Positions 1-20,418 of a DNA stretch of 22,354 nt are shown one piece after another; the first letter of the stretch is position 1; the number at the start of each line of letters is the position of its first letter. The notes below the pieces were generated by a model. That model was given only the letters and a program-made list of their open reading frames with translations, searched no databases and was not told the origin of the DNA. Source of the stretch: Rotaria magnacalcarata (Eukaryota); contig CBCSLL010001906.1 in assembly GCA_965140935.1 (NCBI GenBank), positions 1 to 22,354 of the forward strand, given 5' to 3'. A program made the position numbers and the translations under genes.

Positions 1-230
1 TGTGAAATAAGAACTGATACGCTTTTCGTTGAGATTCAGCGATATACAGATTATGTCTCTTGTACTCGACTCAATGATTCTTACGATCATGAGTAAGCCG
101 ATTTCCCTATTGAATGGAATGATCGGGAGTCTTTAGAATTCATCTATGTAATGATTCTATAATGTTCCTATTGATGTTACGACATTATAGTCGAGAAATA
201 CGGTGATATTCATGGTGATTCAAGAGCCGA

Positions 231-407
231 TGGAATCACACAGAATCAATGGAATCACACGGAATCACGTAGAATCAATGGAATCACGTAGAATCAATGG
301 AATCACGTAGAATCAATGGAATCAACAGAATCACATAGAATCAACAGAATCACATAGAATCAACAGAATCACATAGAATCAGTAGAATCACGGAATCACG
401 GAATCAG
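231..407. repeat. Satellite-like tandem array built on a GAATCA core: the 19-bp unit GGAATCACGTAGAATCAAT x3, then AGAATCACATAGAATCAAC x3, with degenerate copies at both ends.
   Basis: Direct reading shows GAATCA recurring every 8-10 bp and two 19-bp higher-order units, each in three tandem copies. Confidence 0.8.
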
Positions 408-514
408 CTTTTTCCCCCTTGGGATGAGGTCAGATTGAGAGGATATCACAGTCATCCGTCAAACTCAATTTGTTGCGAATATTTATTCTATCAATATAGA
501 GCTGCCGACACACG

Positions 515-522
515 TATAAATA
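515..522 (+). promoter_or_regulatory. Candidate TATA box (TATAAATA) about 125 bp upstream of the ATG at 647.
   Basis: TATAAATA motif lies in the 5' flank of the pentapeptide-repeat ORF; the call rests on position alone. Confidence 0.2.
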
Positions 523-646
523 ACTGGTTCTTCTTACATTTTTTGTATGTTCGAACGAATCACAACACAATATAGATTTTAGATATTATCACCCTTGAAT
601 TTATTTAATACGTGGCATTTTTCGTGCTCTCATCTTTCAACAAATT

Positions 647-1642
647 ATGGATGACAGTTCATTTGATTTCAAACGAGAAAATTCAATCGTGTCATCATCT
701 GTGGCACAAACGTCATCTGATGTGGTGACTCGTAAGAAATCAAAGCCAATTAAATGTATGAATATATTCAAGCTTGCACTCGCTGCATTGCCAACTATTG
801 TTTTTGGAGTGTTTACGATTGTCTCCACGTTACAACAGGATGCTGCGGCTAGGGCGGCACGTGACCAAGGTCAAGGACAAGCCGACGAAACGAATCGAAG
901 AATTCTTTTCAAAGAATATATGGATGATATGAGAGATCTTCTTTTGGATGAAAATTTTGAACAAAATATTAACAAGTCTCTTCTACAAATTCGCGTTCAA
1001 ACATTAACAGTTCTAAGAAATCTTGATCCTATCCGTAAACGTGACGTGTTTCTTTTTTTGTATGAAAGTCGTCTGATTCGACACGATATCACACCGAGAA
1101 TTGATATACGTGGGGCGGATTTTAGTGGAATAAAGCTTGTGCAATCATCGACACAAGTCTGCGATCTTCCCTTTCTTTATTTACCGGGAGTAATCGCAGA
1201 AAATGCCACATTCGATGGTTGTACTCTCACATTTGCAGTGTTTGAGAGTGCGTCAATGGTTGGTTCTAAATTTCTGTTGAACGATATTGCACTTACGAAT
1301 TTTCAGAATACCAATTTGAATAAAGCAACATTTCGTGACAACCAAATGTATGAAGCAAAGTTTACGGGCGCTGATCTTAGTCAATCATTCATTGGTGATG
1401 GAGTTTATCAGAATGTGGATTTCACAAATGTTGATTTGTATCAAAGCGTTATTGGAAATTCCTTATTGAATCCACCACCATTTATCGGCTTGAAGCCAGT
1501 AATTTTGCTCAATACTCGCTTACCGGATGGCACGTTCAGTATTATTGATTCACAGAATTTGCTTATGCATGGTCGAGCAGAGACAGAAGTTAGTTTTGTC
1601 AAATATCGCGTTTTGGAGTGTTTTTCATTTCGTTTTTTGTAG
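647..1642 (+). CDS. Intronless 331-aa protein with an N-terminal signal-anchor/TM helix (IFKLALAALPTIVFGVFTIVSTL) and a C-terminal pentapeptide-repeat domain.
   Basis: Uninterrupted ORF from ATG 647 to TAG 1642. Residues ~165-290 show a strict 5-residue periodicity with a central F/L (NATFD GCTLT FAVFE SASMV GSKFL LNDIA LTNFQ NTNLN KATFR ... GADLS QSFIG ... NVDFT NVDLY), typical of the A(D/N)LXX pentapeptide-repeat family. A hydrophobic stretch at aa 40-62 follows a basic RKKSKPIK motif. Confidence 0.55.
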   Translation: MDDSSFDFKRENSIVSSSVAQTSSDVVTRKKSKPIKCMNIFKLALAALPTIVFGVFTIVSTLQQDAAARAARDQGQGQADETNRRILFKEYMDDMRDLLLDENFEQNINKSLLQIRVQTLTVLRNLDPIRKRDVFLFLYESRLIRHDITPRIDIRGADFSGIKLVQSSTQVCDLPFLYLPGVIAENATFDGCTLTFAVFESASMVGSKFLLNDIALTNFQNTNLNKATFRDNQMYEAKFTGADLSQSFIGDGVYQNVDFTNVDLYQSVIGNSLLNPPPFIGLKPVILLNTRLPDGTFSIIDSQNLLMHGRAETEVSFVKYRVLECFSFRFL

Positions 1643-4600
1643 TGTCATCTCAATGTCACGCCATATTGGAAAGAAGTCGTCACTACTGAACCACTAAATA
1701 TTATTCATTTTCAAGCAAGCCTACCAGTGAATATGTCTAAAGTCGAAGACGATTGCTTTTTCAAAATAGATAAAGACATGACCTACTATCAATTTTTGTC
1801 TGTTCAAAACTTCTCTCATTTGATCGATTTAAAACTAGCTATGTTCAATTTACTGGGATGGTTCGGATTGAAAAATCCAAATGACAAAGATTCGTTAACG
1901 ACGACAGTACACTTTTCACAAAATAAAAATTCATTTAATTTTGGAAGTTCAGTATTTAGTAAGTCGTTGCTGGTAAATCTTTCATGATTCACTATTGTTA
2001 TTTTGCTTGTATTTTAAGTTCATGTGAAAAATTTGACATCGTCATTCCATCAACATTCATTGGTTAATATGATCCCACCAATGACAAGATTTATAGCAGT
2101 ATCACTGGGTTGTAATACAGTTGGTACCAACGACCAATTTTGTCTCTTTGATCAAATAACATTATCAGTTTTTAGAAAGATCTCGTAAAGATGATAAGGG
2201 ATTTTTTTGGTAAATACGCATTACGACGCGAATATGTCAATTTTATGTATAACATATTTTTTGAAAACAATAACAATTGAATTGTATCTGCAGAAAGGAG
2301 TTGTCTTTATCGAAATATGTAAACTCATCCTCACAATTTTTGAGAAAATGTTGACATTAACCGGAGAATATACATGCCATTCTCACTCATTAAATACTCA
2401 TTCGAATTATTTGATGTGTACCACCCTGAAAGTAGGTTGTAATCACATAAGGTTTGGCTTATGTTTAAAAGCAATCAGGAAAGAAACATTTAATTAAAGA
2501 GCCTGTTTTTAGCTTTTTCATATTAAGGAGAGAATAGTGCACTAGTTAACCAAAAAGCGGAACAACATAAGACAGAAGTCGAGCATTCGGATGAAGAGCA
2601 ATATTAGGCACCCATTTATCAACAACATATTTTCTTGTCCAGAAATAAATTTTTTCAATAAAGTTGTCAACCAATAAACTGAATAATATTATCGGTATAG
2701 TTTAAGTTTTCGAAATTCATTGTTGATATTGGTTGAGATCGATTGTGGGTGATATCTGATGGCGGTAGAGTTCCACGGGTTGACCGAGGGGTTATAACTC
2801 AGGATAGGAGTTGACCAGCTGTGGGCACTCATCTATTTGAAAGTATCGAGGTTTCTATAGTGTTCTTCTAGGTGCTGCTTCTAAGCACTCTCTAACGATT
2901 GATAGATAGCAGACGATAATCAGTAGGACGATAAAAATAGAAACCATATTGAAAATGTAAACCAATCTCGGAAAATCATCTATTGGCATCGGTAGAGTGG
3001 TCATTGCTATTTGTTCTCTTGGTGATGTAGCTTCGAAGAATATAGCACAATAGTAATTAGATAGTCACATTGATACACCAAGTAGAAAATTGAGGCATTG
3101 CTTTGAAAATAATGTCAATTTATTCACATGTGTATTATAACGTACATAGGTATATGATTATAGATTTATTTCCACATAGTCTAATGATAAAGAGTAATCA
3201 ACTCAATAGAGAATTGGCAAGCAGATAACTAAGAGGTGCTATCTTGTGTCAACTAAGAAATGTGACATTATATTACCTTTTTTGTTTTGATAATCCGATA
3301 AAAATAGGATGAAATCTCGATCTGTTTGCATAATATTTTCTATCGTATTTTAAATCACAAAGTCATATACTCAAGCCAAATATTATTCGTCTATCTTGTT
3401 TCGTTGACTTGTCTTTAAGTGCTACTCGTTCTTGGAACGATATGAAGTTTTTCAAAAGTATATTCTCTCGCCATTGTTATATAACAACGATAAACAACAT
3501 AAGAACAATTCACACTGATAGCCTCTTTTCAAGCTCAAGTGTGATTGAGAGACAGAGTTGATAGTGGAGATAAACATATTATTATTGTATTGTTTTCAAG
3601 GGACGAATGTGACAAGTCTTTGGTGAAATAGCATACTTAGAATTATACTCGCAATAGAGTTGATATTAATCAAATGGACTGTCGGGATTATTTGGTTTAA
3701 GTGTTTTATTAGTGCCAAACATCCACGCGTTAGTTTTGTTTTCACATACACTGATTTGTTGGTGCTCAGGATTAAATTATTTCGCTATGTCAAACTATAA
3801 GATGAATCCATAGCCTTGTATTGGATCTCCTGCTGGATTGGCACTAAACTCAACAAACAAGAATGTTACTACAGAAAGCTGAGAAACATTTTCTACATTC
3901 GTTGATAGCGAGTTTGACAGATATTCGTCGTCTTGAGTGTGTGGAAGTAATCAACATCGGCATGCACATCTTTCTATTGTGAATACGATTCCACAGAAGA
4001 CAAGATTTCTGTTGGATGCGCTTTCTGTAAAACATGAACTACTCTTATTCATAAAAGCAATCCTGTGATATAATCAATAAAACGAATAAAATTCTAATTT
4101 ATTTTCCACTTGCGACAAAAAAAGAAAGCTCTTTTAATAACTCTTGTGGATAAATTTGTTTTTTGTCGAATCGTTCATAATTCCTTCATACGTTGTTCAC
4201 CAATTTTTGACTTGGGTCGCTTTACACGATGTTTTATTCAGCTATTAATCTGAAAAATGACGTCATGAACAGTAATTGTTCCAGAAAATCTCATAAATCT
4301 GTCATCAGAATTTGTATGCAAAATTACATTACAACTTCGGTTTGTACATCGCCAAAATTTTAGTTTTCTTTCGATTAAAATTTAAAAATTGTAAATTATA
4401 ACCATTAACGATTAACACAAATTTTCCTTTATTCGAGTATGTTTTTGTAATAGTTAGTTTAGTTGGACTTGGTTGTCAAAATGAATTTTCAGGTGATTGA
4501 GATGGCGATAAACATTCAGTTTCATCAATAGCTGTCAACTTATTAGATCCCATCAAAAATGTCTTTTTACAATTACGGAAAAATATTACGCAAAACAACG

Positions 4601-4860: not shown

Positions 4861-5503
4861 GACCGTATTCGTGTGGCACTACGATTGATTTGAATTTTCA
4901 TTCAATATGATCAGAGTTACGTCAGTTTGAAATAATCTGTGATAAATTTTCCATGAATGACCTTTTTTTTCTTGTTTAAAAGAAAAAGTCCCATTTATCT
5001 TCCAGCAGTTTGCTTGCAATGCTCGGTTAAAAAAATGCTTTACAACACTACTGCCGTCTATTAAAAAAAACTTCCTACTCTATATTTTTCAGAATAACTT
5101 CTGGATTGATCTATGAAAGTAAAACCGATAAGTGTTTGTTTTTGTCGGTTGCATATTTGGTTGAAATTTTCTTCGTTTCTTATTTAGATGTAATTTTTAG
5201 ATAATTTATCGGAATGAGTAATTCTGAGGTTTCATTTTCAAACGCAATTCTATCCACTGCCGAATCAAACCTCCAAAATATTTGCCTATTGCTGCACTGC
5301 AAATAACCTTGAAAGCAAACAACTTAAAAAAATAAAAGCTTGTGCAAGAACACCAAGACGTAAGAGAGAGAGTGAAACATAGATTTTACCGCGATATTTG
5401 TTTTTCTTTTTTTCCTTTCTCTAACATGGGGCAAACTTGCACAATGCTTTGAAAAATACTTAATCATTCAACATGCAATACCATAGTCTTTATATTTTCA
5501 GTT

Positions 5504-5510
5504 TATAAAA
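5504..5510 (+). promoter_or_regulatory. Candidate TATA box (TATAAAA) about 70 bp upstream of the MVP1 ATG.
   Basis: GTTTATAAAAGAG motif in the 5' flank; the call rests on position alone. Confidence 0.2.
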
Positions 5511-5579
5511 GAGATTCAACGTTTTTTTCTTGCCTATAGATTGTTACTGACATACGAACATTCTACAAACACATACACA

Positions 5580-5767
5580 ATGAGTAAAGCAACAACTACG
5601 GATAAGAAAAGTGATTCCGGTCCACTTTATCGAATTCCTCCTTATTTTTATATTCATGTTTTGGATCAAAATACAAATGTTACGAGACTTGAAATTGGTC
5701 CCAAAACATTTATTAAACAAGACAATGAAACAGTCACCATCGGACCAGAAAAAATGATTACAGTACC
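5580..5767 (+). CDS. MVP: MVP1 exon 1 ([10 protein letters not shown]...EKMITVP, ends in phase 2).
   Basis: First ATG lies in frame with the ORF 5541..5804. Donor GTACGT is at 5768. The junction restores TVP|PRHYCV, identical to the human MVP motif. Confidence 0.65.
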
Positions 5768-8650
5768 GTACGTTGATAATTGTTATTCTAAGAAAAGACG
5801 ATGAAAGAAAGTAAAAATTTGGATGTTTTTTTAGGCCCCGTCATTACTGTGTTATTGAATCGCCTGTAGTACGCAATGATGCTGGCGAAGTTATTTTCGA
5901 TAAAAATGGACAAGCCAAACTTGTTCATGCTGACTTGGAAATTCGGCTTTCACAACCTGATCAATCACCTTTTCCTCTCTATCCCGGTGAAATTCTTCGT
6001 CAAGTATAAAGAAACATTCAAAATTTTCTATTGAGAATAAAATAAAACTACTTTTTATGTTTGTTCTATTTTAAAGCCTGTTACTCCATTAAAAGTTGTT
6101 CCTGCTAATTCAGCATTACGCTTAAAGGCTGTCCTAGATTTTCAAGATGAAGCAGCAGATGAACAACGTCGGGCTGGAGATGAATGGTTATATGAAGGAC
6201 CAGCTACTTATATTCCTCGTAAAGAAGTTAGCGTTGAAGAACAAATTCGTGCTACAGTTATCTCGTCTAATCAAGCTATAAGGCTTTGCGCAAAAAAGGA
6301 AATCGTTGATCGTACAGGCCAACGACGTGTTACTGGTGAAGAATGGTTAATTAAAAAGACCGGTGCATATTTACCACTTGCATATGTAAGTGCAAATCTC
6401 GTCGGTATGCGAAATACTAATCTTGTTATTTTTAGGAAACTGTGGTTTCAGTAGAAAATGCTTATGTATTAACCGATAAAAAGGCTCTTCATCTTTGTGC
6501 ATTAAAAACTTTTACAGATAATTTCGGTAAAGAACGTATGAACGGTGAAGAATGGCTTGTAACACTTGCTGACACTGAAACACATATTCTTAGTGTCTAT
6601 GAACAATTAGTTTCTGTTGTTAATGTAGTAACATTAACATCACGTCAATATTGTGTTATAATCGATCCAGTTGCTGACGGAAAACCACAATTAGGGAAAA
6701 AAGCAAGTTTTTATCTCAATGAAATCAGAGAGATTAATTATGTTGATTTCTTTCTTTCGTAGAAACTTGTTGTCGGTGAAAAATCATTCTTTCTTCAACC
6801 CGGTGAAAAACTTCAAAATGGTATTCAAGATGTTTTTATCTTAGGTGAAGATGAAGGTGTTATTCTAAAATGTATCGAAGCATTTAAAGATACACAAGCT
6901 AATGTTAATCGAAATCCCGGCGATCGTTGGATGATTCGTGGTCCAACGTAAGATATTTAATGTCTCTATGAAAGGTCTAAATTAATATTATTCTTGTAAA
7001 TTTTAGTGAATATATACCTCCAACACAAGTTGAAGTTGTGACACGTCGAAAAGCTTTGCCATTAGATGCCAATGAAGGTATCTATGTTCGTGATATCAAA
7101 ACTGGTTGTGTCCGTGCCGTCATTGGCGAAACTTATATGTTAACACAAGATGAAGAATTATGGCAAAAAGAATTGCCTAAGAAAGTTGAAGAATTATTAT
7201 CTCGTGATGCTTTAAGTGAACGAAATGTTCTCACGCGAAGTCAAACATCAGATAAAAATCAATCTCAACAACAAGCAGCAACAACAACAACAAGTTCAAA
7301 CGTAAATGTTGCCAAACGTGATAAATCAAAACTAGTTACCTATCGTGTACCACACAATGCCGCTGTACAAATTTATGATTATAAAGCTAAGAAAGCACGT
7401 ATTATATTCGGCCCTGAACTTGTTATGCTTGGACCCGATGAACATTTTACATTACTTTCATTGAGTGGTAGTGTACCAAAAAAACCAAATCAAATTCAAT
7501 CACTTTGCTTACTTCTTGGACCAGACTTTTTTACTGATGTCATTGTTATTGAAACAGCTGATCATGCTCGTCTTTCACTTCAACTTTCATACAATTGGCA
7601 TTTTGAAATATCAGATATTGAAGACGACAAAGAAGCATCCAAACTGTTTTCTGTACCAGATTTTGTTGGTGATGCAGCTAAAGCTATAGCGTCACGTGTT
7701 CGTGGTGCTGTTGCTGGTACACAATTTGATGATTTTCATAAGAATTCAGCTCAAATTATTCGTACGTCTGTATTTGGTCTTGATGCAAATCAAAAAATAC
7801 GAGAAAACTTTACTTTTCCACAAAACAATCTTGTCATTACATCGATTGATATTCAAAGTGTTGAACCTGTGGATCAACGAACACGAGATGCTCTTCAGAA
7901 GAGTGTTCAATTAGCTATTGAAGTAAGATAAAAGACTATCGATTGAATTGTGATGATTAATTTCCGTGTATGTCTACATTTTAGATTACAACAAATTCAC
8001 AAGAAGCTGCAGCTAAGCATGAAGCTTCGCGTCGAGAACAAGAAGCAAAAGGTTTACTAGAACGTCAACGTATTAAAGATGATGCTGAAGCTGAAGAGGT
8101 TCGAAAACAACTTCTCCTGTTACAAGCTGAATCATCGGCTGTTGAAGTCACAGGGCAAGCTAAAGCCGAAGCACAAAGTCGAGCTGAATCTGCTCTCATT
8201 GAAGGACGAGCATCTGTTGAACAAGGTATAAATATTTTATTTTTCCAATGGAATTCAATAAGTGAATTTTTCTTTTGTTTAGCTCGTCTCAGGGCTGACG
8301 CTGCACGAATTGAAGCCGAAGCTGAAATATCACGCCTACAATTGGCACGCGAAGCTGAAATTAACTATTTACGTGAACAGAATGAATTAGAAATTACTAA
8401 AAAGGCTGAAATGTCACGTATTGAAACCGACAAATTCAAATTACAAGTTGAATCAATCGGTGCATCAACAATACAAGCCATTGCAACTTCAGGTCCAGAT
8501 ACACAAGTTAAACTTTTACAAGCGCTCGGTCTTCAGTCCATGTTGGTTACTGATGGTCATTCACCTATCAATCTAATGGGCTTTGGACAAGGACTTTTAG
8601 GTGGTTTAAATGCAAATACAATTAGCAATGCGGGTGGAGCACCTAATTAA
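5580..8650 (+). CDS. MVP: Major vault protein gene, paralog 1 (gene span). Exon model: join(5580..5767,5835..6003,6077..6385,6436..6702,6763..6947,7007..7922,7985..8225,8283..8650), 2643 nt, 880 aa.
   Basis: The translation matches MVP hallmarks along its whole length. N-terminus: [37 protein letters not shown]. Vault repeats: [46 protein letters not shown]. Shoulder/cap: [84 protein letters not shown] coiled-coil tail follows. All splice junctions keep the frame. Introns are GT-AG except one probable GC-AG, and the gene ends at TAA 8648-8650. Confidence 0.85.
5835..6003 (+). CDS. MVP: MVP1 exon 2 ([56 protein letters not shown]).
   Basis: Acceptor tttttttag|G is at 5834/5835; donor GTATAA is at 6004. 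Confidence 0.6.
6077..6385 (+). CDS. MVP: MVP1 exon 3 (PVTPLKVV...[17 protein letters not shown]).
   Basis: Acceptor ttttaaag|C is at 6076/6077; donor GTAAGT is at 6386. Confidence 0.65.
6436..6702 (+). CDS. MVP: MVP1 exon 4 ([20 protein letters not shown]...[13 protein letters not shown]).
   Basis: Acceptor atttttag|G is at 6435/6436. The exon ends before GCAAGT at 6703. The ORF-track tail [19 protein letters not shown] is intron read-through. Confidence 0.55.
6763..6947 (+). CDS. MVP: MVP1 exon 5 ([30 protein letters not shown]...[13 protein letters not shown], ends in phase 2).
   Basis: Acceptor ttcgtag|A is at 6762/6763; donor GTAAGA is at 6948. The frame continues from exon 4 only if the 60-nt GC-AG intron is removed. 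Confidence 0.55.
7007..7922 (+). CDS. MVP: MVP1 exon 6 ([30 protein letters not shown] ... SVQLAIE), 916 nt.
   Basis: Acceptor aattttag|T is at 7006/7007; donor GTAAGA is at 7923. The ORF-track M at 7038 is a GTG artefact. The exon carries a Q/T-rich low-complexity insert ([24 protein letters not shown]). Confidence 0.7.
7985..8225 (+). CDS. MVP: MVP1 exon 7 ([80 protein letters not shown], ends in phase 1).
   Basis: Acceptor cattttag|A is at 7984/7985; donor GT is at 8226-8227. Confidence 0.65.
8283..8650 (+). CDS. MVP: MVP1 exon 8 ([103 protein letters not shown]...GAPN*).
   Basis: Acceptor tttgtttag|C is at 8282/8283; stop TAA is at 8648-8650. The exon overlaps ORF 8342..8650, whose M is a TTG artefact. 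Confidence 0.65.
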
Positions 8651-9395
8651 TGCATTGAAGAAAATTATTAGATAAAACTTTCTTTTTTGTTGAAGAAGAA
8701 CAATAATTTTTGTCCGTTCCTTCGTGTTTTCGTATGAATAATTTAACTATATAAGTGCACTCTACTTATTGTGTAGTTCATGTATGAATAATAGACTGTG
8801 ATGATCATCATAAGAAACAATTTTTTCACTACCTAGCTATTATCTACTTCCTAGCTCTTTTCAAAATGTATTGAAAAGTGCTTCAAAAATAGGCACCCCA
8901 TGGCGATGTATTTCTTCACTTCACCTTGACAATTCCGATGTTTTTATTTTATAGCTTGTCAATACCTCGAAAATTCAATGTGATAAGTGCATTTATTTTA
9001 AATTAAAGTTTAGTATTCCAGTTCGAAAAAACAACGTAAGAGTGTGAGAGCGACTTTCGTGATTTGTTGAGTCATCGGCAGAAACTAGATTGAAATCCCA
9101 TGTTTCAATTAATTTACAAATACTTCACTTGAAATAAAAATCCACTCAGAAAAGTTATCAATAGTTGGGAGACAATTTTTGGAGGCTCGTCGGAACTTTC
9201 CTTTTGTTAGAATATTCGTTGTATTGACTGAGTCACGCTTGAGAAGTCTCCCTCGTAAGATTTACTCTTCCCAAATGTGTTTTGTGTTGTTTAGCACATT
9301 TACAATGTCATTTGAATAGACGCTAAATTTGTTGAATACTAAATTAAATCGAATCAGATTCATAACTGAAATACGCGAAGCAGCAATCGAATGTA

Positions 9396-9403
9396 CTCTA
9401 GAA
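9396..9403. repeat. Left 8-bp target-site duplication (CTCTAGAA) of the hAT-like MITE.
   Basis: An identical octamer directly abuts both TIRs (9396-9403 and 10079-10086). Confidence 0.7.
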
Positions 9404-10078
9404 CAGAGATGCCAGATGTGAAAGTCGAAAATCCGGAAAATTCCGGAATTGTTTTTTCAGAATCCGGAAAAAATCCGGAAAGGTTTTCAAGGATCAATTT
9501 TAGTCACGTAAAGGACATCTTTCTCAGTTAAATTATAAATAGCTTTGTATATTTTCGCAAAATAAAACATACTGTAATTACACAAAAATAAAAATAAACA
9601 GCTAAATGTTGCCAATTTATAGAAAATAACTTAGAAATTACACAATTTGAAGTTAATTAGCACGTTGTTTTTTGGCACAATATTTTTCATTAGAATGAAT
9701 AGGTTTCAGCAGTTCCGGTTTTGATAAAAAAAATTATAAATTTCTGTACATGATAAAGATGAGTTAAAACGAATTTTAAATTCAGCTGCAACAAGTTTCA
9801 TTGACATACGATTTCGGTTATCATCGTATAGATGCTTCATGGCTGAAAAAACACTTTCAACAAATGCATTGCTACATGGAATAGAGATAAGGTCACCAAT
9901 AGAAGAAAATATTAAATCTCTACTGAATTATTCACAATTTAGAATGCTAAAACAAATGAAATAAAACTGAAATAAGAAATCGCTAAAATCCGGAAAAAAT
10001 CCGGAAGCCGAAAAGTATCCGGAAAAACTTCAAAAATCCGGAATTTTTCCGGATTTTCCGGATCATCTGGCATCTCTG
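9404..10078. mobile_element. Non-autonomous hAT-superfamily MITE, 675 bp. It has a perfect 15-bp TIR (CAGAGATGCCAGATG ... CATCTGGCATCTCTG), subterminal (A)ATCCGGAAAA repeats at both ends, no ORF, and an AT-rich interior.
   Basis: Both TIRs were read directly and are flanked by a perfect 8-bp direct repeat (CTCTAGAA). An 8-bp TSD and a CAGAG-type terminus are the hAT signature, and the TSD fits the nTnnnnAn preference. At least 5 ATCCGGAA(A) motifs lie within ~80 bp of each end. Confidence 0.75.
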
Positions 10079-10086
10079 CTCTAGAA
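10079..10086. repeat. Right 8-bp target-site duplication (CTCTAGAA) of the hAT-like MITE.
   Basis: See the left TSD. Confidence 0.7.
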
Positions 10087-10442
10087 TCAATCGAGGCTTT
10101 GCGTTTGTGTTTGCTTTGAAAATGATTTCATTTCAGGTAGAATAACATTTTCTCTTTTTTTTTATGTATCATACTCAACTTTCTCAATTACTTCAATAAA
10201 ATTAACATATATACGTATATCAAATTTTATTAAATTATTTTATTTTTCGAATGGAAAAAGCTATTTTCTGAGGTCACGCACATATATTAAAAATAATAAG
10301 TATAAAACAATGTTCTGTCCTTCTTACAAAGAAACATGTGTTTTTATTTTAAGAATCTGACTAATGTCTTGTGTCTAAACTGGACATAGAAATTCAAATT
10401 TTATGAGTTTTGTTTTTTCTTGATCGATTTGTTCTCAATCGT

Positions 10443-10448
10443 TTTATT
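10443..10448 (-). promoter_or_regulatory. AATAAA polyadenylation signal overlapping the MVP2 stop codon (cAATAAAa). A second AATAAA lies about 100 nt downstream at ~10338-10343 (-).
   Basis: The minus-strand sequence reads ...CCACAAAGACAATAAAACGATTG. Confidence 0.3.
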
Positions 10449-10557
10449 GTCTTTGTGGTGTACCAACTAAATCAACGGCAGTATTGAAAAGATTAATTGG
10501 ACTGCGTCCATCAGTAATCAAAGTTGATTTAATACCAAGAGCTTGAAGAAGTTTAAC
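10444..10557 (-). CDS. MVP: MVP2 exon 14 ([37 protein letters not shown]).
   Basis: Acceptor tttag|G (ag = 10559,10558); stop TAA at 10446-10444. Confidence 0.6.
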
Positions 10558-13500
10558 CTAAATAATGAGAGAGGAAAAAACAAGCAGTTAGTAAAGTGTA
10601 GCACGAATTCTTATTAAGATAAAATCTTACTTGATTATCGGGTCCGCTAGTAGCAATAGCTTGAATAGTTTTTGGACCGATAGCAGCAACATGCTCTTTG
10701 AATTCTGAAATTTCAATATCGGCTAATCGTTTTGCTTTTTCTATTTCTAAATTAGCTGTCGACGTTGAATAATGTAATTCAAGTTGGCGTGCTTGCGTTA
10801 AACGTATAAGTTCAGCATCAGATTCAATCTTTGAAGCTTGTGCACGAAGTGTAGCTGAAAAAGAGAAAAGAGAACATATAATATATATATATATCGATAC
10901 AGATGTTCAATATGCGACATACCTTGATCAACAGCAGCTGCACCTTCGATTTTAGCTGCTTCTGCTCTTGATTGAGCTTCAGCGCGTGATTGACCGGTGG
11001 TTTCAACAGCAGATGACAGTGCTTGAAGTTCTAATAATTTTCGTCGTTCCTTTTCAGCTATAAAAATGAAAAGGTTTACGATTCCAATTTCACATAGAAT
11101 AAAATTCTACCTTCTGCTTCATCAGCAATTTTCTGTCGTTCTAAATGACCCTTTGCTTCTTGTTCTGTGCGTGAAGCTAAATGTCTATAGGAAAAACGAA
11201 GCAAATAAAAATTTGAAGTTCATTTTTTGTTAAACATACTTCGCTTGGGCTTCTTGTGAATTTGTTGTTATCTAAAATGGAGACATGCACGGAAATTAAT
11301 CATCACAATTCGATCGATAATCTTTTATCTTACTTCAATAGCTAATTGAACACTCTTCTGAAGAGCATCTCGTGTTCGTTGATCCACTGGTTCAACACTT
11401 TGAATATCAATCGATGTCAGAACCAAACTATTTTGCGGGAATACTAGTCTTTTTTTCACATGTTTATTTTCATCAAGACCGAATACTGAGCTTCGAATGA
11501 TTTTCGCAGAGTTCTTATGGAAATCATCGAATGAAATACCAGCAACAGTACCACGAATTTTAGCTGCTACAGCTTTACAAAAATCACCAATAAAATCTGG
11601 TACTGAAAAAAGTTTTGTAACTTCTTTTTGATCATTGGAATCATTAACCTAAAATAATAAAAAAAAAACAAAGATTTGCTTTCTTTTCTTTGTAAACTCT
11701 TATAATTCTTACCTCAAAATGCCAGTTATATGAAAGTCTGAGTGAAAGACGAGCATGATCACTTGATTCGATTGTTACAATATCACTTGAAAATTCGGGT
11801 CCCATTAGAAGACAAATAGCTCGAATCTTATTTGGTACTTTGGGTTTTTCACCGGATAAATTCAATATTGTGAATTGCTCATCTGGTCCGAGCATAACAA
11901 GTTCAGGGCCAAATACAATGCGTGCTTTTTTAGATTTGAAGTCATAAATTTGTACACAAGCATTGTGTGGAACTCGATAGGCAACTACTTTCGATTTATC
12001 TCTTGGTGGTATAGCTGTTTTTTGTGCTGATTTATCATCAAAACATCGAGCATCTTGATTGAGAAGTAGTTCAACTTGGGCAGGTAATTCTTTCTCCCAA
12101 AGTTCTTCATTTTCAGTCAATAAATATGTAGTGCCAATGACTGATCGAACTTTACCAGTTTTAACATCTCGAACATAAATACCTTCATTGACATCTAATG
12201 GTGTAGCTCTACGTCGGAGTACTACTTCCGATTCGACAGCTGGAATATAGTCTTTAGGTCCTCGGATCATCCAACGATCACCAGGATTACGTAGGACCGT
12301 CTATAAAAACAATCAATCGGATACAATTGATAAATAAAAATTTCACAAAACCTATTAACTTACTCCATCTTCTTTAAACGATTCAGTACAACGAAGAATG
12401 AGTCCTTCATCGTCTTCAAGAACATAGACATCCTGAATACCTTTAGCTAATTTTTCACCGGGTTGAAGAAAGAATGTTGTTTCTCCCTTTAGAAAATCGA
12501 AAGATTTAAAATTTAAAATTCATATGATTCTAATTTATCATACTTTAACAAGCTTTTTCTTTCCAAGTTGCGGTTTACCATCTGAACCAACAGGATCAAT
12601 AATAACAGCGTATTGACGAGAATTTAATACAGTTACTGCTACAACACCAACAACCTAAATATTTTATTCATTATTTTTCATCTACGAAATAAACATATTT
12701 AATTATATCTACCTCTTCAAAAACATCTGGAATATATGTTTCAGCATCACGGGCATATACAAGCCATTCTTCTCCATTGAGACGTTTATGTTTGAATGAA
12801 TCAATAAATGTGCCCAATGCTCGTAAATGAAGAGCTTTCTGGAAGAAGAAAAAAGGGCAATAAAATAAATATATCATGAAAAAAGACGACTGATTCCTAA
12901 GAACACATACTTTGTCAGTTAGTACATAGGCTTTAACTGTTGAAACAACTTCTTCGTAAGCTAATGGTAAGTATGAGCCAATAGTACGATTAAGCCATTC
13001 TTCGCCTGTTTCGCGTGCAATTCCATCGCGGTCAACCATCTCTTTTTTCGCACGTAAACGAACAGCTTCGTTTGGTTTAAGAATAACAGCTTTTATTTGT
13101 TCTTCAACGCTAACTTCTTTACGTGGAAGATAAGTTCCTAGAAATAAATTTATTCGAAAATGTTTACTATTAAAAAATTTAGAATATTTTTGTTTTGCTA
13201 TTTTACCTGGTCCACAGAAGAGAAATTCATCTCCAGCACGTATCTGTTGATCATTCTCATCGGTAAAATCCAAAACCGCACGAAGGCGTAATGCACAGTT
13301 AGGCTCAATAACTTTCAATGGTGTTACATTCTGTTTGAGTATTTCACCAGGATAGAGTGGAAATGGTTCTTGAGCAAATCGAATATCAACATCCGAATGT
13401 AACAACTTAACTTGACCATTAGAATCAATAACAACTTTCGCATTTTTATCACGAACAGCTGGATTTTCAACAACGCAATAATGACGAGGACTAGATAATT

Positions 13501-13790
13501 AGTTATACATAGAATTTTTTAATGAAATCAAAGAAAGAAAAACAACTTCAACATACGGAATTATTATCATGCGTTCTGGTCCAACGAGGACTTTTTCATG
13601 ATCTTGTTTAACAAATGTAAGTGGGCCAACTTCAAGTCGGCTTACATTTTTATTTTGATCGAGCACATGTAGATAGTAGAAAGGAGGAACTCGGTAAACT
13701 AAAATTCAACGAAGAAAAAACAACGAGCATTGAATCTTAATGCAAAAGAATTAAAATATTCATACCACCGGTAACTTTTGAATCAGCCAT
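10444..13790 (-). CDS. MVP: Major vault protein gene, paralog 2 (gene span, minus strand). Exon model: complement(join(10444..10557,10631..10854,10923..11057,11111..11184,11240..11271,11334..11648,11713..12300,12364..12486,12544..12654,12713..12838,12911..13137,13207..13490,13557..13698,13766..13790)), 2520 nt, 839 aa.
   Basis: The spliced translation is [35 protein letters not shown] ... [11 protein letters not shown] ... [18 protein letters not shown] ... [11 protein letters not shown] ... ETGEEWL ... [19 protein letters not shown] ... [16 protein letters not shown] ... [20 protein letters not shown] ... [14 protein letters not shown] ... [12 protein letters not shown] ... [19 protein letters not shown] ... 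[30 protein letters not shown] ... [24 protein letters not shown] ... *. It is collinear with paralog 1 and with vertebrate MVP. All 13 introns are GT-AG of 53-73 nt, all junctions preserve the frame, and the total length is divisible by 3. Confidence 0.85.
10631..10854 (-). CDS. MVP: MVP2 exon 13 ([75 protein letters not shown]).
   Basis: Acceptor ttttcag (ag = 10856,10855); donor GTAAGA at 10630. Confidence 0.6.
10876..10894. repeat. (TA)n microsatellite inside an MVP2 intron.
   Basis: ATATAATATATATATATAT read directly. Confidence 0.7.
10923..11057 (-). CDS. MVP: MVP2 exon 12 ([45 protein letters not shown]).
   Basis: Acceptor tttatag (ag = 11059,11058); donor GTATGT at 10922. The intron contains a (TA)n microsatellite. 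Confidence 0.6.
11111..11184 (-). CDS. MVP: MVP2 exon 11 ([25 protein letters not shown]).
   Basis: Acceptor cctatag (ag = 11186,11185); donor GTAGAA at 11110. Confidence 0.55.
11240..11271 (-). CDS. MVP: MVP2 exon 10, a 32-nt micro-exon ([10 protein letters not shown] + first 2 nt of K).
   Basis: Acceptor cattttag (ag = 11273,11272); donor GTATGT at 11239. Its 5' portion lies in the block that is near-identical to MVP1. Confidence 0.55.
11334..11648 (-). CDS. MVP: MVP2 exon 9 ([105 protein letters not shown]).
   Basis: Acceptor tattttag (ag = 11650,11649); donor GTAAGA at 11333. Confidence 0.65.
11713..12300 (-). CDS. MVP: MVP2 exon 8 ([45 protein letters not shown] ... SYNWHFE), 588 nt.
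   Basis: The exon lies within ORF 11644..12270(-), whose tail [10 protein letters not shown]... is intron read-through. Acceptor ttttatag (ag = 12302,12301); donor GTAAGA at 11712. Confidence 0.7.
12364..12486 (-). CDS. MVP: MVP2 exon 7 ([41 protein letters not shown]).
   Basis: Acceptor ttctaaag (ag = 12488,12487); donor GTAAGT at 12363. Confidence 0.6.
12544..12654 (-). CDS. MVP: MVP2 exon 6 ([37 protein letters not shown]).
   Basis: Acceptor atatttag (ag = 12656,12655); donor GTATGA at 12543. Confidence 0.6.
12713..12838 (-). CDS. MVP: MVP2 exon 5 ([42 protein letters not shown]).
   Basis: Acceptor tcttccag (ag = 12840,12839); donor GTAGAT at 12712. Confidence 0.6.
12911..13137 (-). CDS. 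MVP: MVP2 exon 4 ([76 protein letters not shown]).
   Basis: Acceptor tttctag (ag = 13139,13138); donor GTATGT at 12910. Confidence 0.6.
13207..13490 (-). CDS. MVP: MVP2 exon 3 ([95 protein letters not shown]).
   Basis: Acceptor ttatctag (ag = 13492,13491); donor GTAAAA at 13206. The exon overlaps ORF 12671..13405(-). Confidence 0.6.
13557..13698 (-). CDS. MVP: MVP2 exon 2 ([48 protein letters not shown]).
   Basis: Acceptor gaattttag (ag = 13700,13699); donor GTATGT at 13556. Confidence 0.6.
13766..13790 (-). CDS. MVP: MVP2 exon 1 (MADSKVTG + 1 nt).
   Basis: ATG at 13790-13788; donor GTATGA at 13765. An alternative donor 3 nt upstream would give the same phase. Confidence 0.45.
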
Positions 13791-14963
13791 TTTTATTCTT
13801 TACTAGTAATGTGAATCTGAAACAGAATGACGGCAGTAGAAGAAGTCCTTTTTATGTATAGGTGAGAATGTCAACACAATCAGGGAATATTGTGTATGTG
13901 AAATAGAAAGAGAAGGGTTGTGTAGAGGGACTGACAAGTTTTCACCAACGTTATGAAATGACTGCAGATAAGATTGCAAGACTAAATAGCAATAACAACT
14001 AATGCATTGGCATATAACGAGGTTGATTTATTCTGCGTATAGAAAAAAAAGTAAGAGAAAATAGAGGGTTGAAAAACAGATTCTGCAGAGAGTGAATTGG
14101 AGAAGAACGCAAGAGCCCTTCATTTGACACTGAATATCTTTGCCTAGAAGAAAGAAATAAAATTTTATTTTCAATGCAACATGAAATTTTCTATATGAAT
14201 AATATGGATGTCACAAATATTCACAATAGAATGTATTGATGATGCAAATGCTCCAGTAGCTTGTAATAACCTTATTACTGTTTGACGATAAAACAGGTGT
14301 TAGAACGCTAACTTCGATAAAATACATGATAAAAATAGATCAAATTAATTGAAAGTAGTATTGAGAATTATTTTCTAAAAATATTCAACAAAGCAATGAA
14401 TTTGTGCTATACAATACAATTGAATGTTATAGTAAATAGAAATGACTTGCCTTCCATGTTAGAGTTAGCATCTTTTTTTAGTCAAAAATCACTATTCATT
14501 TTTATATTTGACCTCGAAAATATGAAACACGTTAGAGAAATAATACTCCTCAATAATTTGATTCGTTGTAAAAATGCACTAAAGAAACTAGAATAACAAG
14601 TTTATAGTATATAAATTGGTACCAACATTTTTCGTGTTGACTATTGTTTCAATACATCATTTATCTTCTGAATGACTTCTAATAGTAATGCCACATATTG
14701 TTTTCTTTTACAAACGCTTAAATAGTATTTTATTGAAAACATGATTTATTTATTTATTATCATTATTTTTCAATATCGTTGTGATTTAACAAATAGATTC
14801 ACGTAAATTCGCATAAAGTCGATTACAAATGTCAAACAAAAAACGTTCAATACGAACATAATAAATATATATTCTATTGTGTATGATAATATTCATTGTG
14901 ATGATGCATTAATTTGTCGATTAGAATACTATCACATTAAACTCGTATTTTTTTTTCGTCGGC

Positions 14964-15165
14964 TTAAACATATCGCCATGTAATCATAGTCGGACTATCA
15001 ACATTTACGATTCTAGGTTTTTTCTTTACATCTCTTCCTTCGTTGTATAGAATCACACCAAACATAACAATAAATGTTCCTGCACCACTTAAGAATGTCA
15101 CCGGATTATGAAATATAATAATTGATATCCATATCATTAATGCACGCTTTATAGTATTCGCAACA
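14964..15165 (-). CDS. SLC35-like exon 5 (S VANTIKRALMIWISIIIFHNPVTFLSGAGTFIVMFGVILYNEGRDVKKKPRIVNVDSPTMITWRYV*).
   Basis: The exon matches ORF 14964..15197(-). Acceptor ctactag (ag = 15167,15166). Confidence 0.65.
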
Positions 15166-16645
15166 CTAGTAGAAAAAAAAACGAAAATTGTGAGCAATAC
15201 GACGAGTCATCGTTTTTGTTTTACCTGTGTGTTATCGGCGATATGTAAGCCATGATAGCAAAGGCAGCAACGGCTTGTATATGATAAAAAAATCCATTGA
15301 AAATATATAAAAGAGCTAATGTTTTCGAAGTTAATGATAATGCTAACGGAATATCAACATAATAAAGAAGTAAAGGTAATTGAAAAATACATGCTAAAAG
15401 ACTAGCCCAAAATTGTAATTCAATAGCTGTATAACGATAATGTTCACCGCTTATTAATAATTTAGAATAAACATTTTGTAAACTGAAATAAGAAGAAAAT
15501 TCGAAACGTGGAAAAAATCAGTGAAATTTCATAGCTGTTCGATTTATCAGATTAAGTTAAATCAATATTACTCTCGTGATTAATGATTTAGATAACTAGA
15601 AACTTGCAATGTTTCGTCTGTCACGATTTGAGATATGCGAGACCGGAATTAAACAGTATAGTTAATTATTCTATGGTTCAAATCGAATTGTATTAATCAG
15701 AGTATAACCCAAGGGAGACAAACGGTCGCATGCTAAATATGGAAAACTCTAGAAATGATGAGCTTTGCTTTTAACCTTTACTACAAATTAATGATGGAAC
15801 CAGACAAAAAAATCTATTGTGACCTAAGCTTTCACTTGAAGAATTATCTTCGCTTATAGTCTAAGTTCTGAAGCAGGCTCCATCGCTGGTACTATTTCTA
15901 CCAAATAACAGTATAATCATCTTACCAATCAAATATATTTGTCCCTAATGCACACAAAAATCCGCTCAAATTAAAGCTTAATTCAAATGAGCTACATAGA
16001 CATAAGCCAAGTGTTATTGGTATCATTGAAAATTTAGTCCAATGAGCTAAAATACAAGAGAATAGTTATTCTTAAAAACATATTTAAAAAAAATGCTTCT
16101 TACTTGTTCTTTCTCCAAGTATAATTCGACTAATAATAACCGTAAATAACGGAGAAGAAGATTTTATTGTTGCTACAAATGATACAGCTATATATTTCAA
16201 AGCAATTAAACCTAAAACAATAGTCACAGAACGAAATGCGCCGATTAATATCATATCACGATATACGTTTTTCATCACCGTTGGATTTCTATTTAATGGA
16301 CTATAAAATTTATTTATAAATAGTAAATGTATATAACCACTAATTATGGAAATAACAAGTTGAATTGTGCCTTAAATTGCAAAAAGAAATTCGAAATTTT
16401 AGTTGAAAACGGAACATAGTGGATGTTTCTATTTCAATACCTAATGAAAAAGTATCGCCATCCAAATGACTTAATATGTATTTATTTGAAAATAATGTTG
16501 CAGCCGATGAAATATACCATACAATAAGGATTATTATTGCCATTGAATGATATAAACCTCGGTGAACATCAAGACCAAATTTGTCCGTTGAATGTAAAAC
16601 ATCGGTTCGATCTGGAGCAACGTCAGATAAACTTGTTAACGGCAT
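14964..16645 (-). CDS. SLC35/TPT-family (SLC35E-like) nucleotide-sugar/triose-phosphate transporter-type membrane protein, gene span. Exon model: complement(join(14964..15165,15225..15482,15926..16046,16104..16370,16441..16645)), 1053 nt, 350 aa.
   Basis: The spliced translation is MPLTSLSDVAPDRTD...AIIILIVWYISSAATLFSNKYILSHLDGDTFSL|GTIQLVISIISGY...VATIKSSSPLFTVIISRIILGERTS|THWTKFSMIPITLGLCLCSSFELSFNLSGFLCALGTNIFD|C LQNVYSKLLISGEHYRYTAIELQFWASLLACIFQLPLL...AFAIMAYISPITHS|VANTIKRALMIWISIIIFHNPVTFLSGAGTFIVMFGVILYN...*. It carries the family motifs: NKYIL in TM1, IKSSxPxFTVI, LQNVYSKLL, ELQFW, SPxTHSVANTxKR, and a C-terminal NPVT...G...LY. Ten hydrophobic helices are predicted. The gene has 4 GT-AG introns. 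Confidence 0.7.
15225..15482 (-). CDS. SLC35-like exon 4 (C LQNVYSKLLISGEHYRYTAIELQFWASLLACIFQLPLLLYYVDIPLALSLTSKTLALLYIFNGFFYHIQAVAAFAIMAYISPITH).
   Basis: Acceptor tatttcag (ag = 15484,15483); donor GTAAAA at 15224. Confidence 0.6.
15926..16046 (-). CDS. SLC35-like exon 3 (T HWTKFSMIPITLGLCLCSSFELSFNLSGFLCALGTNIFD).
   Basis: Acceptor tattttag (ag = 16048,16047); donor GTAAGA at 15925. Confidence 0.6.
16104..16370 (-). CDS. SLC35-like exon 2 (G TIQLVISIISGYIHLLFINKFYSPLNRNPTVMKNVYRDMILIGAFRSVTIVLGLIALKYIAVSFVATIKSSSPLFTVIISRIILGERT).
   Basis: The exon contains ORF 16084..16278(-). Acceptor aatttaag (ag = 16372,16371); donor GTAAGA at 16103. Confidence 0.6.
16441..16645 (-). CDS. SLC35-like exon 1 (MPLTSLSDVAPDRTDVLHSTDKFGLDVHRGLYHSMAIIILIVWYISSAATLFSNKYILSHLDGDTFSL).
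   Basis: The exon matches the start of ORF 16340..16645(-). Donor GTATTG at 16440. Confidence 0.6.
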
Positions 16646-18139: not shown

Positions 18140-19438
18140 TTTCAGAACAATGCTACCAACAAGTCAGGATTAAACTAAGAGTTTATCACCACTTGACTTG
18201 ACTTGGAAGCGAAGTTGACCGAAATCGACAATTACGAATACATATCTTTAATACTGATGAAGATCACAAAAGCAACTCAACAGTCTGAACTGTGATACAA
18301 TCCTAAAAACGTCAAAACCGACACCGATTTCAATGCGTATAAAAAAATTGAAATTGTATTCTTAACTTTCTGACGGAGGAAACAGTGAACCTTTTCTAAT
18401 ATAACCTATTTTAGATGAAATTCTCATTAATTTTAGAACATGTTTTCTCGTATTATTATGGAAATAATACTCCTGAAATCTTTAATGAGGGATGATATTG
18501 TTTGATGTCCTTCACATAGAATATTAACTGTTTAGTAGCCTAGTAGGAAGAGAAATGAATTAAATCCCTGTGGTTAATTTTTATTAAAACAAGACGACAA
18601 CAACAATGTTTATTTTCATTTAGATTACGTTCAATGTTGATATTTGTTAAAGTCACACGTTAACCACTAATCTATTCGTTTACAGCTCATTTAAAAAGAA
18701 TAAAATGTTCAATTGTCATTGTCCTCTACGAATATGTTGATAAACTTGGATAGAGTTTTTGCAGCAATGCATTTTATTAAAGCTACCTTAGGAATTATAC
18801 TACGACGATTCGAATCGCGCTTCGTACTGAACTATGGTAAACTATTGCATACGAAGTCTAAGCGTTTTATCAAGCATATGATTATGTTTACATACGAGAA
18901 TAATTGATGTCGTAAATTTTTCTTCGAGGTAGAGATTTTTAAACGCTTATTTGAATTGTTCTCATATATACCAGATTGTTCACATAATCGAGCTCAGATT
19001 AAAGATAGCAAGTCATTATTATTGTTTTTTCAATCACCGAGTTTCTAATTTTCTATTGATAAGTTGCATGGTGAACTAAGCATATTACTAATCTATACTG
19101 CTTTCGATTCATAATGAAGGACGTCAATGGGAAAAGATTATCATTATTCTATTCTTCAATGTCATGGTGTTTTATTTATTACAAACACATACAATTTTCA
19201 ATTGTAGTTGAATGAAAAATTTAGGATGAGGCAATCATTAAGAGAAATGAATTCTTAGGTATAAAAATCTGATACTCTTATTTGTTTTGACATCAAAAAT
19301 CAAGATACCCATGTCCATTTAAATTAATTTTTCATTGCTGCGATAGAGGAAAGATTTCTCTATCCGCTTAGGTTTGACCAAAAGTGCTGCAATTAAAAAA
19401 ACAAATTAAAGAAAAAGAGAAAGTTCGAGTATATATAT

Positions 19439-19912
19439 CAAGTTGAATTCTTTCTAACAATTTGTTGAGAGTTTTTTAGCTCTTCTTCGAAAAAACTTTC
19501 AGGTACCTTGGATGCCACATGAACTAATCATATTTCATTTATTCAATTAGTTAAAATACGTTCACTGGAATTGGTTAGCCAAAAATGACATAGTATCAGG
19601 CCTGGCGAATATGACGGATAAAACACTAAACAAAGTTTTCGTTAAAATCTGTCTTTATGAACAATAGTCGTTGGCGATTCATCTTCAATAAGCCAGCTAG
19701 CATCAGATGACACATGATTAGCCTATCTAAAATAAATCCATATCCCATCGCTAGTAGTGCTAGAACGCAACTGCCATGATCAAACGAAATTTCACTAAAT
19801 TTTTAAACCAATGAAATATGATTGGTCCATGTGGTATCCAAGGTGCCTAAAAGTTTTTTCGAAGAAGAGCTCAAACAACCGTTTAGCAAATTGTTAGAAA
19901 GGATTCAACTTG
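19439..19912. mobile_element. MITE-like element of 474 bp with ~100-bp terminal inverted repeats at ~88% identity (CAAGTTGAATTCTTTCTAACAATTTG... / ...CAAATTGTTAGAAAGGATTCAACTTG). It has no coding capacity and is flanked on both sides by (TA)n, so a TA target-site duplication is plausible, consistent with a Tc1/mariner-derived origin.
   Basis: The reverse complement of 19811-19912 aligns with 19439-19540 at ~88 of 101 positions. The termini are exact (CAAGTTGAAT). The flanks read TATATATAT|CAAG and CTTG|ATATATAT. Confidence 0.55.
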
Positions 19913-19946
19913 ATATATATGTTGAAGGGAAAATTAAAATTTTAAT

Positions 19947-20114
19947 CTCTCCTAGAGAAATTTGAAATCTTCCTCTTTCCTCTATATTTCCTATGAAGAA
20001 GCGAGCATTCTAACTTCACCTAGAGGAGATTACAATTTTTCTCTTTCCTGTGAATTTTATACGAAGAAGCGAGCGTTTTAATTTTCTCTATAGGGGAATT
20101 TTAAATTCTCCTAG
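19947..20114. repeat. Tandem repeat of a 67-bp unit, 2.5 copies at ~75% identity between copies: CTCTCCTAGAGAAATTTGAAATCTTCCTCTTTCCTCTATATTTCCTATGAAGAAGCGAGCATTCTAA / CTTCACCTAGAGGAGATTACAATTTTTCTCTTTCCTGTGAATTTTATACGAAGAAGCGAGCGTTTTAA / partial.
   Basis: Direct reading. The partial third copy ends in GGGGAATTTTAAATTCTCCTAG, which is also the left arm of an inverted repeat. Confidence 0.55.
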
Positions 20115-20418
20115 CAAACGATAAATGTATAATCTTTTACATGTTTGTTGTATTTCCTTGAAAACTATTGTATTATCTATCAAAATAATATAAAACACTT
20201 TCAACAATGTATAGTTTACATAAAAAACATTAGAAACAACTTAAAGACAACTGCAAAAATTATTCGATATTTTCACAGGCATGTTTTTTTTTTTGGTGAT
20301 TTTTCTCTCCATTTCAGTCAGTAGAGAGCGCGCGGTCACGTCGCTATTTAATTTTAATTTGGTAAGATACAGAAGAAGATTATACATTTATTGCTTACTA
20401 GGAGAATTTAAAATTCCC
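20094..20418. repeat. Perfect 21-bp inverted repeat (GGGAATTTTAAATTCTCCTAG ... CTAGGAGAATTTAAAATTCCC) bracketing 283 bp; possibly a second small MITE. The interior contains a T11 run and a GC-rich core (GAGAGCGCGCGGTCACGTCGC).
   Basis: The reverse complement of 20398-20418 equals 20094-20114 exactly. Confidence 0.4.

Follow-up and report, generated by a model that had tools for sequence, protein, structure and literature searches.

Genes and features of the locus

The window, that is, the whole stretch of 22,354 nucleotides that was analysed, is eukaryotic in character with about 33% G+C and short introns, and its protein matches place it in the bdelloid rotifers, close to Rotaria. Two genes identified as MVP genes by Pfam converge in it. 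The plus-strand gene ends at 8650 and the minus-strand gene at 10444, leaving a spacer of 1.8 kb. Their best database matches are 84-88% identical and belong to clusters made up of metagenome entries and one Adineta steineri fragment. The other genes in the window recognised by Pfam are a pentapeptide-repeat ORF (647-1642, plus strand, 331 aa), a gene type that is common in bdelloid rotifers, and a TPT-family transporter gene. An exact look-up of the 331-aa product in the assembly collection gave no record.

In exon DNA, the two convergent MVP genes share about 73-75% identity as paralogs. A tract of about 170 nt (7839-8007 on the plus strand and 11268-11417 on the minus strand) is about 96% identical between them, with a perfect run of 67 nt and a whole intron of about 60 nt, and looks like a gene-conversion tract between the inverted paralogs. 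Nested inverted repeats are found at 19367-20526 with outer arms of 35 nt matching at 91%. They enclose 19431-19920, with arms of about 125 nt at 85%, and 20094-20418, with 43-nt arms at 93%, and may represent other foldback or MITE-like elements.

The first-pass annotation had reported an insertion between the two converging MVP genes, and the element does lie within their shared 3' spacer, 746 bp past the plus-strand and 358 bp past the minus-strand MVP stop. It is AT-rich and 675 bp long (9404-10078), and its transposase sense is the minus strand. The features are listed here in window coordinates; L006 is the autonomous-type relative described below.

9396-9403, no strand: target-site duplication, left copy CTCTAGAA (sequence; 8/8 flanking repeat)
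9404-9418, minus: TIR, element 3' end in transposase sense, CAGAGATGCCAGATG read inward (perfect match)
9419-9652, minus: 3' untranslated and subterminal region with four TCCGGA at 9432-9479, aligning with the 3' end of the L006 element
9653-9891, minus: relic, last 79 codons of a hAT transposase plus stop, corresponding to aa 640-718 of the L006 protein (Pfam, tblastn)
9885-9890, minus: internal-deletion junction, L006 element position 191 joined to 2480, with about 3 nt of TTA microhomology
9888-10063, minus: 5' leader and subterminal region with six TCCGGA at 9989-10062 and a local hairpin at 9985-10057
10064-10078, minus: TIR, element 5' end in transposase sense (perfect match)
10079-10086, no strand: target-site duplication, right copy CTCTAGAA (sequence)

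Element ends and target-site duplication

The 15-bp perfect TIR and the 8-bp perfect duplication that had been claimed were both read at these positions, the TIR at 10064-10078 being the exact reverse complement of that at 9404-9418 and the two copies of CTCTAGAA agreeing at 8/8 positions. No further perfect match to the TIR occurs in the 22-kb window. A TIR-like match with three mismatches at 12724-12738, inside an MVP exon, was dismissed as chance. When perfect inverted repeats of at least 12 nt lying 100-5000 bp apart were compared over the whole window, an 8/8 flanking direct repeat was present only at the pair of the element; the probability of such a repeat is about 4e-5 per given inverted pair at the base composition of the window. 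A 15-mer inverted pair by itself is not rare and arose in 71 of 200 Markov simulations. Hence, the significance of the structure rests on the adjacent duplication and above all on independent copies elsewhere.

The core of the duplication, TCTAGA, is palindromic and stretches the apparent inverted repeat to 22 nt, as might be expected if the region were a structural palindrome or an artefact of assembly with no link to transposition. However, the same ends occur with different flanks at other loci, the TIR of the window element being conserved at five of them (L001, L002, L005, L006 and L008), L005 possesses a perfect 8-bp duplication of its own, and the interior is not self-complementary. The copies with different flanks contradict the idea that the TIR and duplication merely form part of a larger simple palindrome, and we assign a palindrome or artefact next to no probability. 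Because the flanks differ in the other copies, the boundary of the element is placed at CAGAG.

Subterminal motifs and self-complementarity

The clustering of palindromic subterminal motifs noted in the first-pass annotation was confirmed. TCCGGA occurs ten times in the window (1.67 expected) and ATCCGGAA nine times (0.5 expected), each occurrence falling within 9431-9480 or 9988-10063, the two ends of the element. At the 5' end, the TCCGGA motifs are offset from the tip by 17, 26, 37, 56, 74 and 85, exactly as in the intact L006 element, and at the 3' end the window copy has four compared with three in L006. Several of the motifs have been lost from L001 and L005. By analogy with other hAT elements, TCCGGA is the presumed transposase binding site.

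The interior had also been described as a long imperfect palindrome, and this did not hold up. Self-complementarity is confined to element positions 1-78 versus 582-675, i.e. to the subterminal repeat arrays in the terminal 80-95 bp or so, and to the local hairpin at 9985-10057. Between element positions of about 80 and 580, self-complementary 8-11-mers occur at chance level only, and this 500-bp interior shows no self-pairing. For the subterminal hairpin the z-score of folding was -3.2. A search of Rfam returned a sub-threshold match to MIR8008, a plant microRNA precursor family, at 9984-10058 on both strands (34.9 bits versus a gathering score of 66). It was rejected as a chance similarity to a low-complexity palindrome, stemming from the TCCGGA-rich subterminal hairpin.

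A transposase relic inside the element

The minus strand of 9653-9891 translates to ...LISIPCSNAFVESVFSAMKHLYDDNRNRMSMKLVAAEFKIRFNSS... and contains the hAT dimerisation-domain motif SIPCSNAFVESVFS. This relic scored 28.6 bits against Pfam PF05699 (Dimer_Tnp_hAT; cut-off 21.4), and tblastn with aa 640-718 of the L006 transposase matched it in two frames with 94.5% and 92.3% identity. A single 1-nt frameshift is located in a T-run at about 9727-9733; relatives read on as ...NFFLSKPELLKPIHSNEKYCAKKQRxN-stop, and the window copy gets to that tail only past the frameshift. Given the match to Dimer_Tnp_hAT and the tail regained after the frameshift, we conclude that the interior consists of a transposase C-terminal relic and a 3' untranslated region. 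The closest database protein to the relic is P0001 from Rotaria magnacalcarata (94% identical). P0150, nominally in one cluster with a relic peptide, is actually an unrelated bacterial protein and was discarded.

With this frameshift and a longest ATG ORF of only 44 aa in the element, the window copy makes no transposase. The copy had been taken for 675 bp of non-coding, non-autonomous DNA; it is non-autonomous, but non-coding is too simple a description of an interior that carries a frameshifted transposase C-terminus.

Autonomous-type relatives

A candidate for the autonomous partner with matching TIRs that the first-pass annotation proposed to look for was found in L006, a 3.1-kb JGI metagenome contig. 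It holds a 2,952-bp element at 52-3003 with identical, perfect 15-bp TIRs and an uninterrupted hAT transposase gene. The exons lie at 357-1020, 1077-1271, 1402-1568 and 1636-2766 and are separated by GT-AG introns of 56, 130 and 67 nt; joined by conceptual splicing rather than from an observed mRNA, they yield an uninterrupted product of 718 aa. This product scored 32.2 bits against Dimer_Tnp_hAT (cut-off 21.4). Reading of its sequence furthermore gave candidate hAT-like motifs, namely a Cys/His region, SYDASN, GADNTN, CYNHILHN, KLRWLTL and FVESVFS, and the N-terminal Cys/His region has a sub-threshold match to Pfam zf-C2H2_12 (18.2 bits versus 27.3). The flanks of the L006 element show no duplication (CTACTTTT versus ACAATAAC), and the contig may be a chimeric metagenome assembly. 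A second relative, L005, is a pseudogenised full-length copy of 3,176 bp that has the gene structure of L006, although with stop codons and an enlarged intron, and is flanked by the perfect 8-bp duplication CCTGTAAT.

Searches of the PDB with the transposase, either by phmmer or with a profile, gave no match to Hermes and no sequence or profile match for the RNase H-like DDE catalytic core of hAT transposases, which is characterised by an inserted domain, a CxxH motif and a conserved Trp. The model that AlphaFold built for the C-terminal half from an alignment of 12 sequences was poor (pLDDT 44). An exhaustive HMMER search with P0013, a relative of the C-terminal half, returned 1,015 related cluster representatives, many of them 600-700 aa long at about 30% identity, and in five of the eight that were scanned against Pfam the hAT dimerisation domain scored.

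The deletion junction and other short copies

The window element aligns to positions 1-191 and 2480-2952 of the L006 element with 92.1% identity, 2,288 bp being missing in between. As it is collinear with L006 but for this one gap, we consider the window copy a Ds-like internal-deletion derivative. Its small size of 675 bp, its AT-richness and the lack of a long ORF would also suit a MITE of independent origin that, like maize Ds1, resembles a hAT element in the TIRs alone and encloses unrelated non-coding sequence. Such an origin is extremely improbable, since the whole length is collinear with L006 and L005 apart from one deletion and the interior translates to the transposase C-terminus.

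Further copies with these TIRs, another check proposed in the first-pass annotation, are present at the unrelated loci L001, L005, L006 and L008. Among these, L001, between tetraspanin and cadherin genes in the R. magnacalcarata assembly GCA_965120345.2, and L008, on an ENA metagenome contig, are short copies with perfect or near-perfect TIRs, and their identity to the window copy is 95.8% for L001 and 96.8% for L008. The duplication matches at 6/8 positions at L001, and the flanks at L008 match at 4/8. All three short copies, those of the window, L001 and L008, have exactly the same junction string, TATTGGTGACCTTATCTCTATTCCATG. The occurrence of the same junction at three unrelated sites argues that the deleted form has spread and, as read from these sequences, that one deletion event gave the short element, which has since inserted at at least three unrelated sites. 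The three same-junction copies come from three data sources. A 26-mer of the element 3' end found no match among JGI metagenome contigs; it was too strict a probe, as the 3' subterminal sequence of L006 differs. In the first-pass annotation the insertion was regarded as recent and perhaps mobilisable. The intact duplication, TIRs and motifs agree with this, while recency has to be taken as relative, the copy being 3-4% diverged from its nearest sister copies and 8% from L006.

At L001, NCBI and UniProt give positions 5001-5845 as the gene of a 120-aa protein named "HAT C-terminal dimerisation domain-containing protein" (P0001, P0148, P0149). The model in fact joins a transposon relic, by splicing, to the sequence beside it. 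It bears on the possibility that the dimerisation-domain fragment yields a short peptide able to poison transposase multimers, a repressor comparable to KP of the P family: besides this annotated protein in the R. magnacalcarata copy, all three short copies retain exactly the dimerisation-domain end of the ORF. Nevertheless, the window copy is frameshifted, its 44-aa ATG ORF begins past the conserved SIPCSNAFVESVFS, and the fragment has neither a promoter nor a start codon. Retention of the 3' end is, moreover, already predicted by the cis-requirements for transposition, and we regard a repressor function as highly improbable.

Two further observations concern related sequences. L003 (5452-5560), L004, L009 (940-1719) and L010 (39-818) form a second short hAT subfamily with the TIR CAGAGTTGCCAGATC, in which TTCTGGA stands in place of nearly all subterminal TTCCGGA. 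Either the presumed binding site has changed in concert, or the difference is due to CpG decay. At L002, an ORF at 3518-4333 with a weak DDE_Tnp_4 match and a CxC...CxH motif lies upstream of a degenerate hAT copy, whose 5' TIR was not found within 6.5 kb; the ORF is probably another transposon nested in or beside the hAT copy.

For the conserved MVP exon of the window, the best database match reaches 88% identity at the protein level, in a database that includes R. magnacalcarata proteins. The element copies, on the other hand, are 96-97% identical across data sources, and this discrepancy raises the question of horizontal spread, although it could also reflect simply missing database entries. 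If the window stems from a different bdelloid lineage, the element may have moved horizontally between species or its hAT family may still be active there, a scenario that we consider unlikely.

Relation of the insertion to the MVP genes

The first-pass annotation suggested that the element might supply terminators or polyadenylation signals to the MVP genes. Both genes, however, have canonical signals ahead of it. On the plus strand, ATTAAA/AATAAA are found at 9002, 9133 and 9343, which is 352, 483 and 693 nt past the MVP stop, and the minus-strand gene has AATAAA 96, 200 and 213 nt past its stop. Within the element, the plus strand contains several AATAAA and the minus strand none. Two bdelloid-like contigs, L011 (8463-17483) and L012 (6668-17243), keep the order MVP(+)/MVP(-)/TPT of window positions 5541-16645, with genes that share 73-82% DNA identity with those of the window, and this conservation indicates that the convergent MVP pair is old. 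In L012 an O-fucosyltransferase gene lies between the two MVP genes. In both contigs the MVP spacer is free of the TIR and of any TCCGGA cluster, so that these syntenic loci manage without the element and the insertion appears to be lineage-specific, with no sign of being needed. The L011 and L012 spacers are too diverged to align with the window and document absence of the element only, rather than a base-exact empty site; the predicted empty-site 22-mer AATGTACTCTAGAATCAATCGA had no match among JGI metagenome contigs.

These data also speak to co-option of the element at the 3' ends of the MVP genes, be it as a terminator or poly(A) site, as an insulator between the convergent transcripts or as the source of a small-RNA hairpin. 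The site between two convergent genes would suit such a role, the ends of the element would pair strongly if transcribed (z = -4.6), the subterminal hairpin has its sub-threshold microRNA-like Rfam match and AATAAA occurs several times on the plus strand of the element. Against this, the poly(A) signals of both MVP genes all precede the element, its minus strand lacks AATAAA, L011 and L012 keep the convergent pair without it and the sister copies reside in unrelated contexts. Co-option is very unlikely, and the insertion is most likely neutral for the MVP genes.

Affiliation with the hAT superfamily and comparison with known systems

The hAT superfamily is defined by an 8-bp target-site duplication (PMC3517528). 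Such a duplication is matched at 8/8 positions in the window, at 8/8 in L005 and at 6/8 in L001. Typical hAT TIRs are short (5-27 bp) and usually begin with CAG, as does the 15-bp perfect TIR of this element; the C-terminal dimerisation region was detected in the window relic (28.6 bits) and in the L006 protein (32.2 bits), and with 2,952 and 3,176 bp L006 and L005 stay below the roughly 4 kb of autonomous hAT forms. Collinearity with L006 from end to end, save one internal gap, is the structure of a Ds-del-type element. By size and coding content the copy also agrees with a strict definition of a MITE, having 675 bp, TIRs and a duplication with only a frameshifted 79-codon relic. That definition also asks for a high copy number in the host genome; the copies with this junction number three, across three data sources. 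Judged from its sequence, the element is nonetheless better called a hAT element that has undergone internal deletion, keeps a transposase relic and has an autonomous-type partner than a MITE of unrelated interior.

The duplication consensus of the Ac family is reportedly nTnnnnAn. For the Buster family it is nnnTAnnn (PMC3517528). CTCTAGAA fits both patterns, the flanks of L001 and L008 fit nTnnnnAn and CCTGTAAT of L005 fits neither fully, which has to be read with the small number of sites in mind.

Among known systems, the Ds-del elements of maize Ac/Ds are similar in being internal deletions of an autonomous hAT element that keep TIRs and subterminal repeats and are flanked by an 8-bp duplication, and they are mobilised in trans (PMC3260210). 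The rotifer element differs in host kingdom and in its unrelated TIR sequence. Its subterminal motif is TCCGGA, whereas the subterminal repeats of Ac are of the AAACGG type. A parallel from animals is provided by the Mar MITEs of Drosophila willistoni, which are short hAT derivatives with CAG-initial TIRs and an 8-bp duplication, a family that arose by internal deletion and then amplified (PMC3517528). Mar was assigned to the Buster family by phylogeny and by the consensus nnnTAnnn, and about 90 of its copies are characterised (PMC3517528), compared with three found for the rotifer element. With Hermes, the element shares TIRs and multiple subterminal repeats, the 8-bp duplication and the C-terminal hAT dimerisation region; the Hermes repeats are bound by an N-terminal zinc-finger (BED) domain of the transposase (PMC10368747). 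In the PDB searches, the rotifer transposase showed no detectable sequence similarity to Hermes.

Proposed origin and mobility

Taken together, copies at unrelated loci and the transposase partner L006 uphold the first-pass reading of a hAT-type non-autonomous element with intact ends and target-site duplication. It is an ordinary, real and cis-intact transposon, and we are highly confident that it is a non-autonomous DNA transposon of the hAT superfamily, derived by internal deletion, in a bdelloid rotifer genome. According to the model that we propose, the ancestor would have been an autonomous element of about 2.95 kb with 15-bp TIRs, TCCGGA subterminal repeats and a four-exon gene for a 718-aa transposase. 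A single internal deletion of about 2.3 kb would have reduced it to 191 bp from the 5' end and, with the last 79 codons, 473 bp from the 3' end. The deleted form would then have spread through transposition, and one copy would have entered a CTCTAGAA target in the 1.8-kb MVP spacer, duplicating those 8 bp.

If the element behaves like Hermes and Ac, transposase provided in trans would bind the subterminal TCCGGA repeats via its N-terminal zinc-finger region, pair both ends, cut at the tips of the TIRs and reinsert the element through a cut staggered by 8 bp. For transposition, hAT elements depend on about 100-200 bp at each end (PMC10368747). The window copy has kept every cis feature of the intact element, and its ends of 191 and 473 bp satisfy this need, so that it would plausibly be mobilisable in trans, provided that its genome expresses a functional transposase.

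Implications

For annotation, the region is best masked as a deletion derivative of a hAT element, and gene models at sister copies that bear the name "HAT C-terminal dimerisation domain-containing protein" should be treated as transposon relics and not as host genes. hAT-like elements have reportedly been seen in bdelloids. Class II elements account for about 2.5% of bdelloid genomes, with recent activity seen in many of them (Nowell et al. 2021, PMC7943196), a picture of bdelloid DNA transposons into which this hAT family fits. The apparently intact autonomous L006 element and the cis-intact short copies form a matched pair for testing cut-and-paste activity in bdelloids. Presence or absence of the insertion among haplotypes or strains is a marker that could inform on recombination or gene conversion, and wherever horizontal spread should prove true, the transfer would have taken place within an anciently asexual group.
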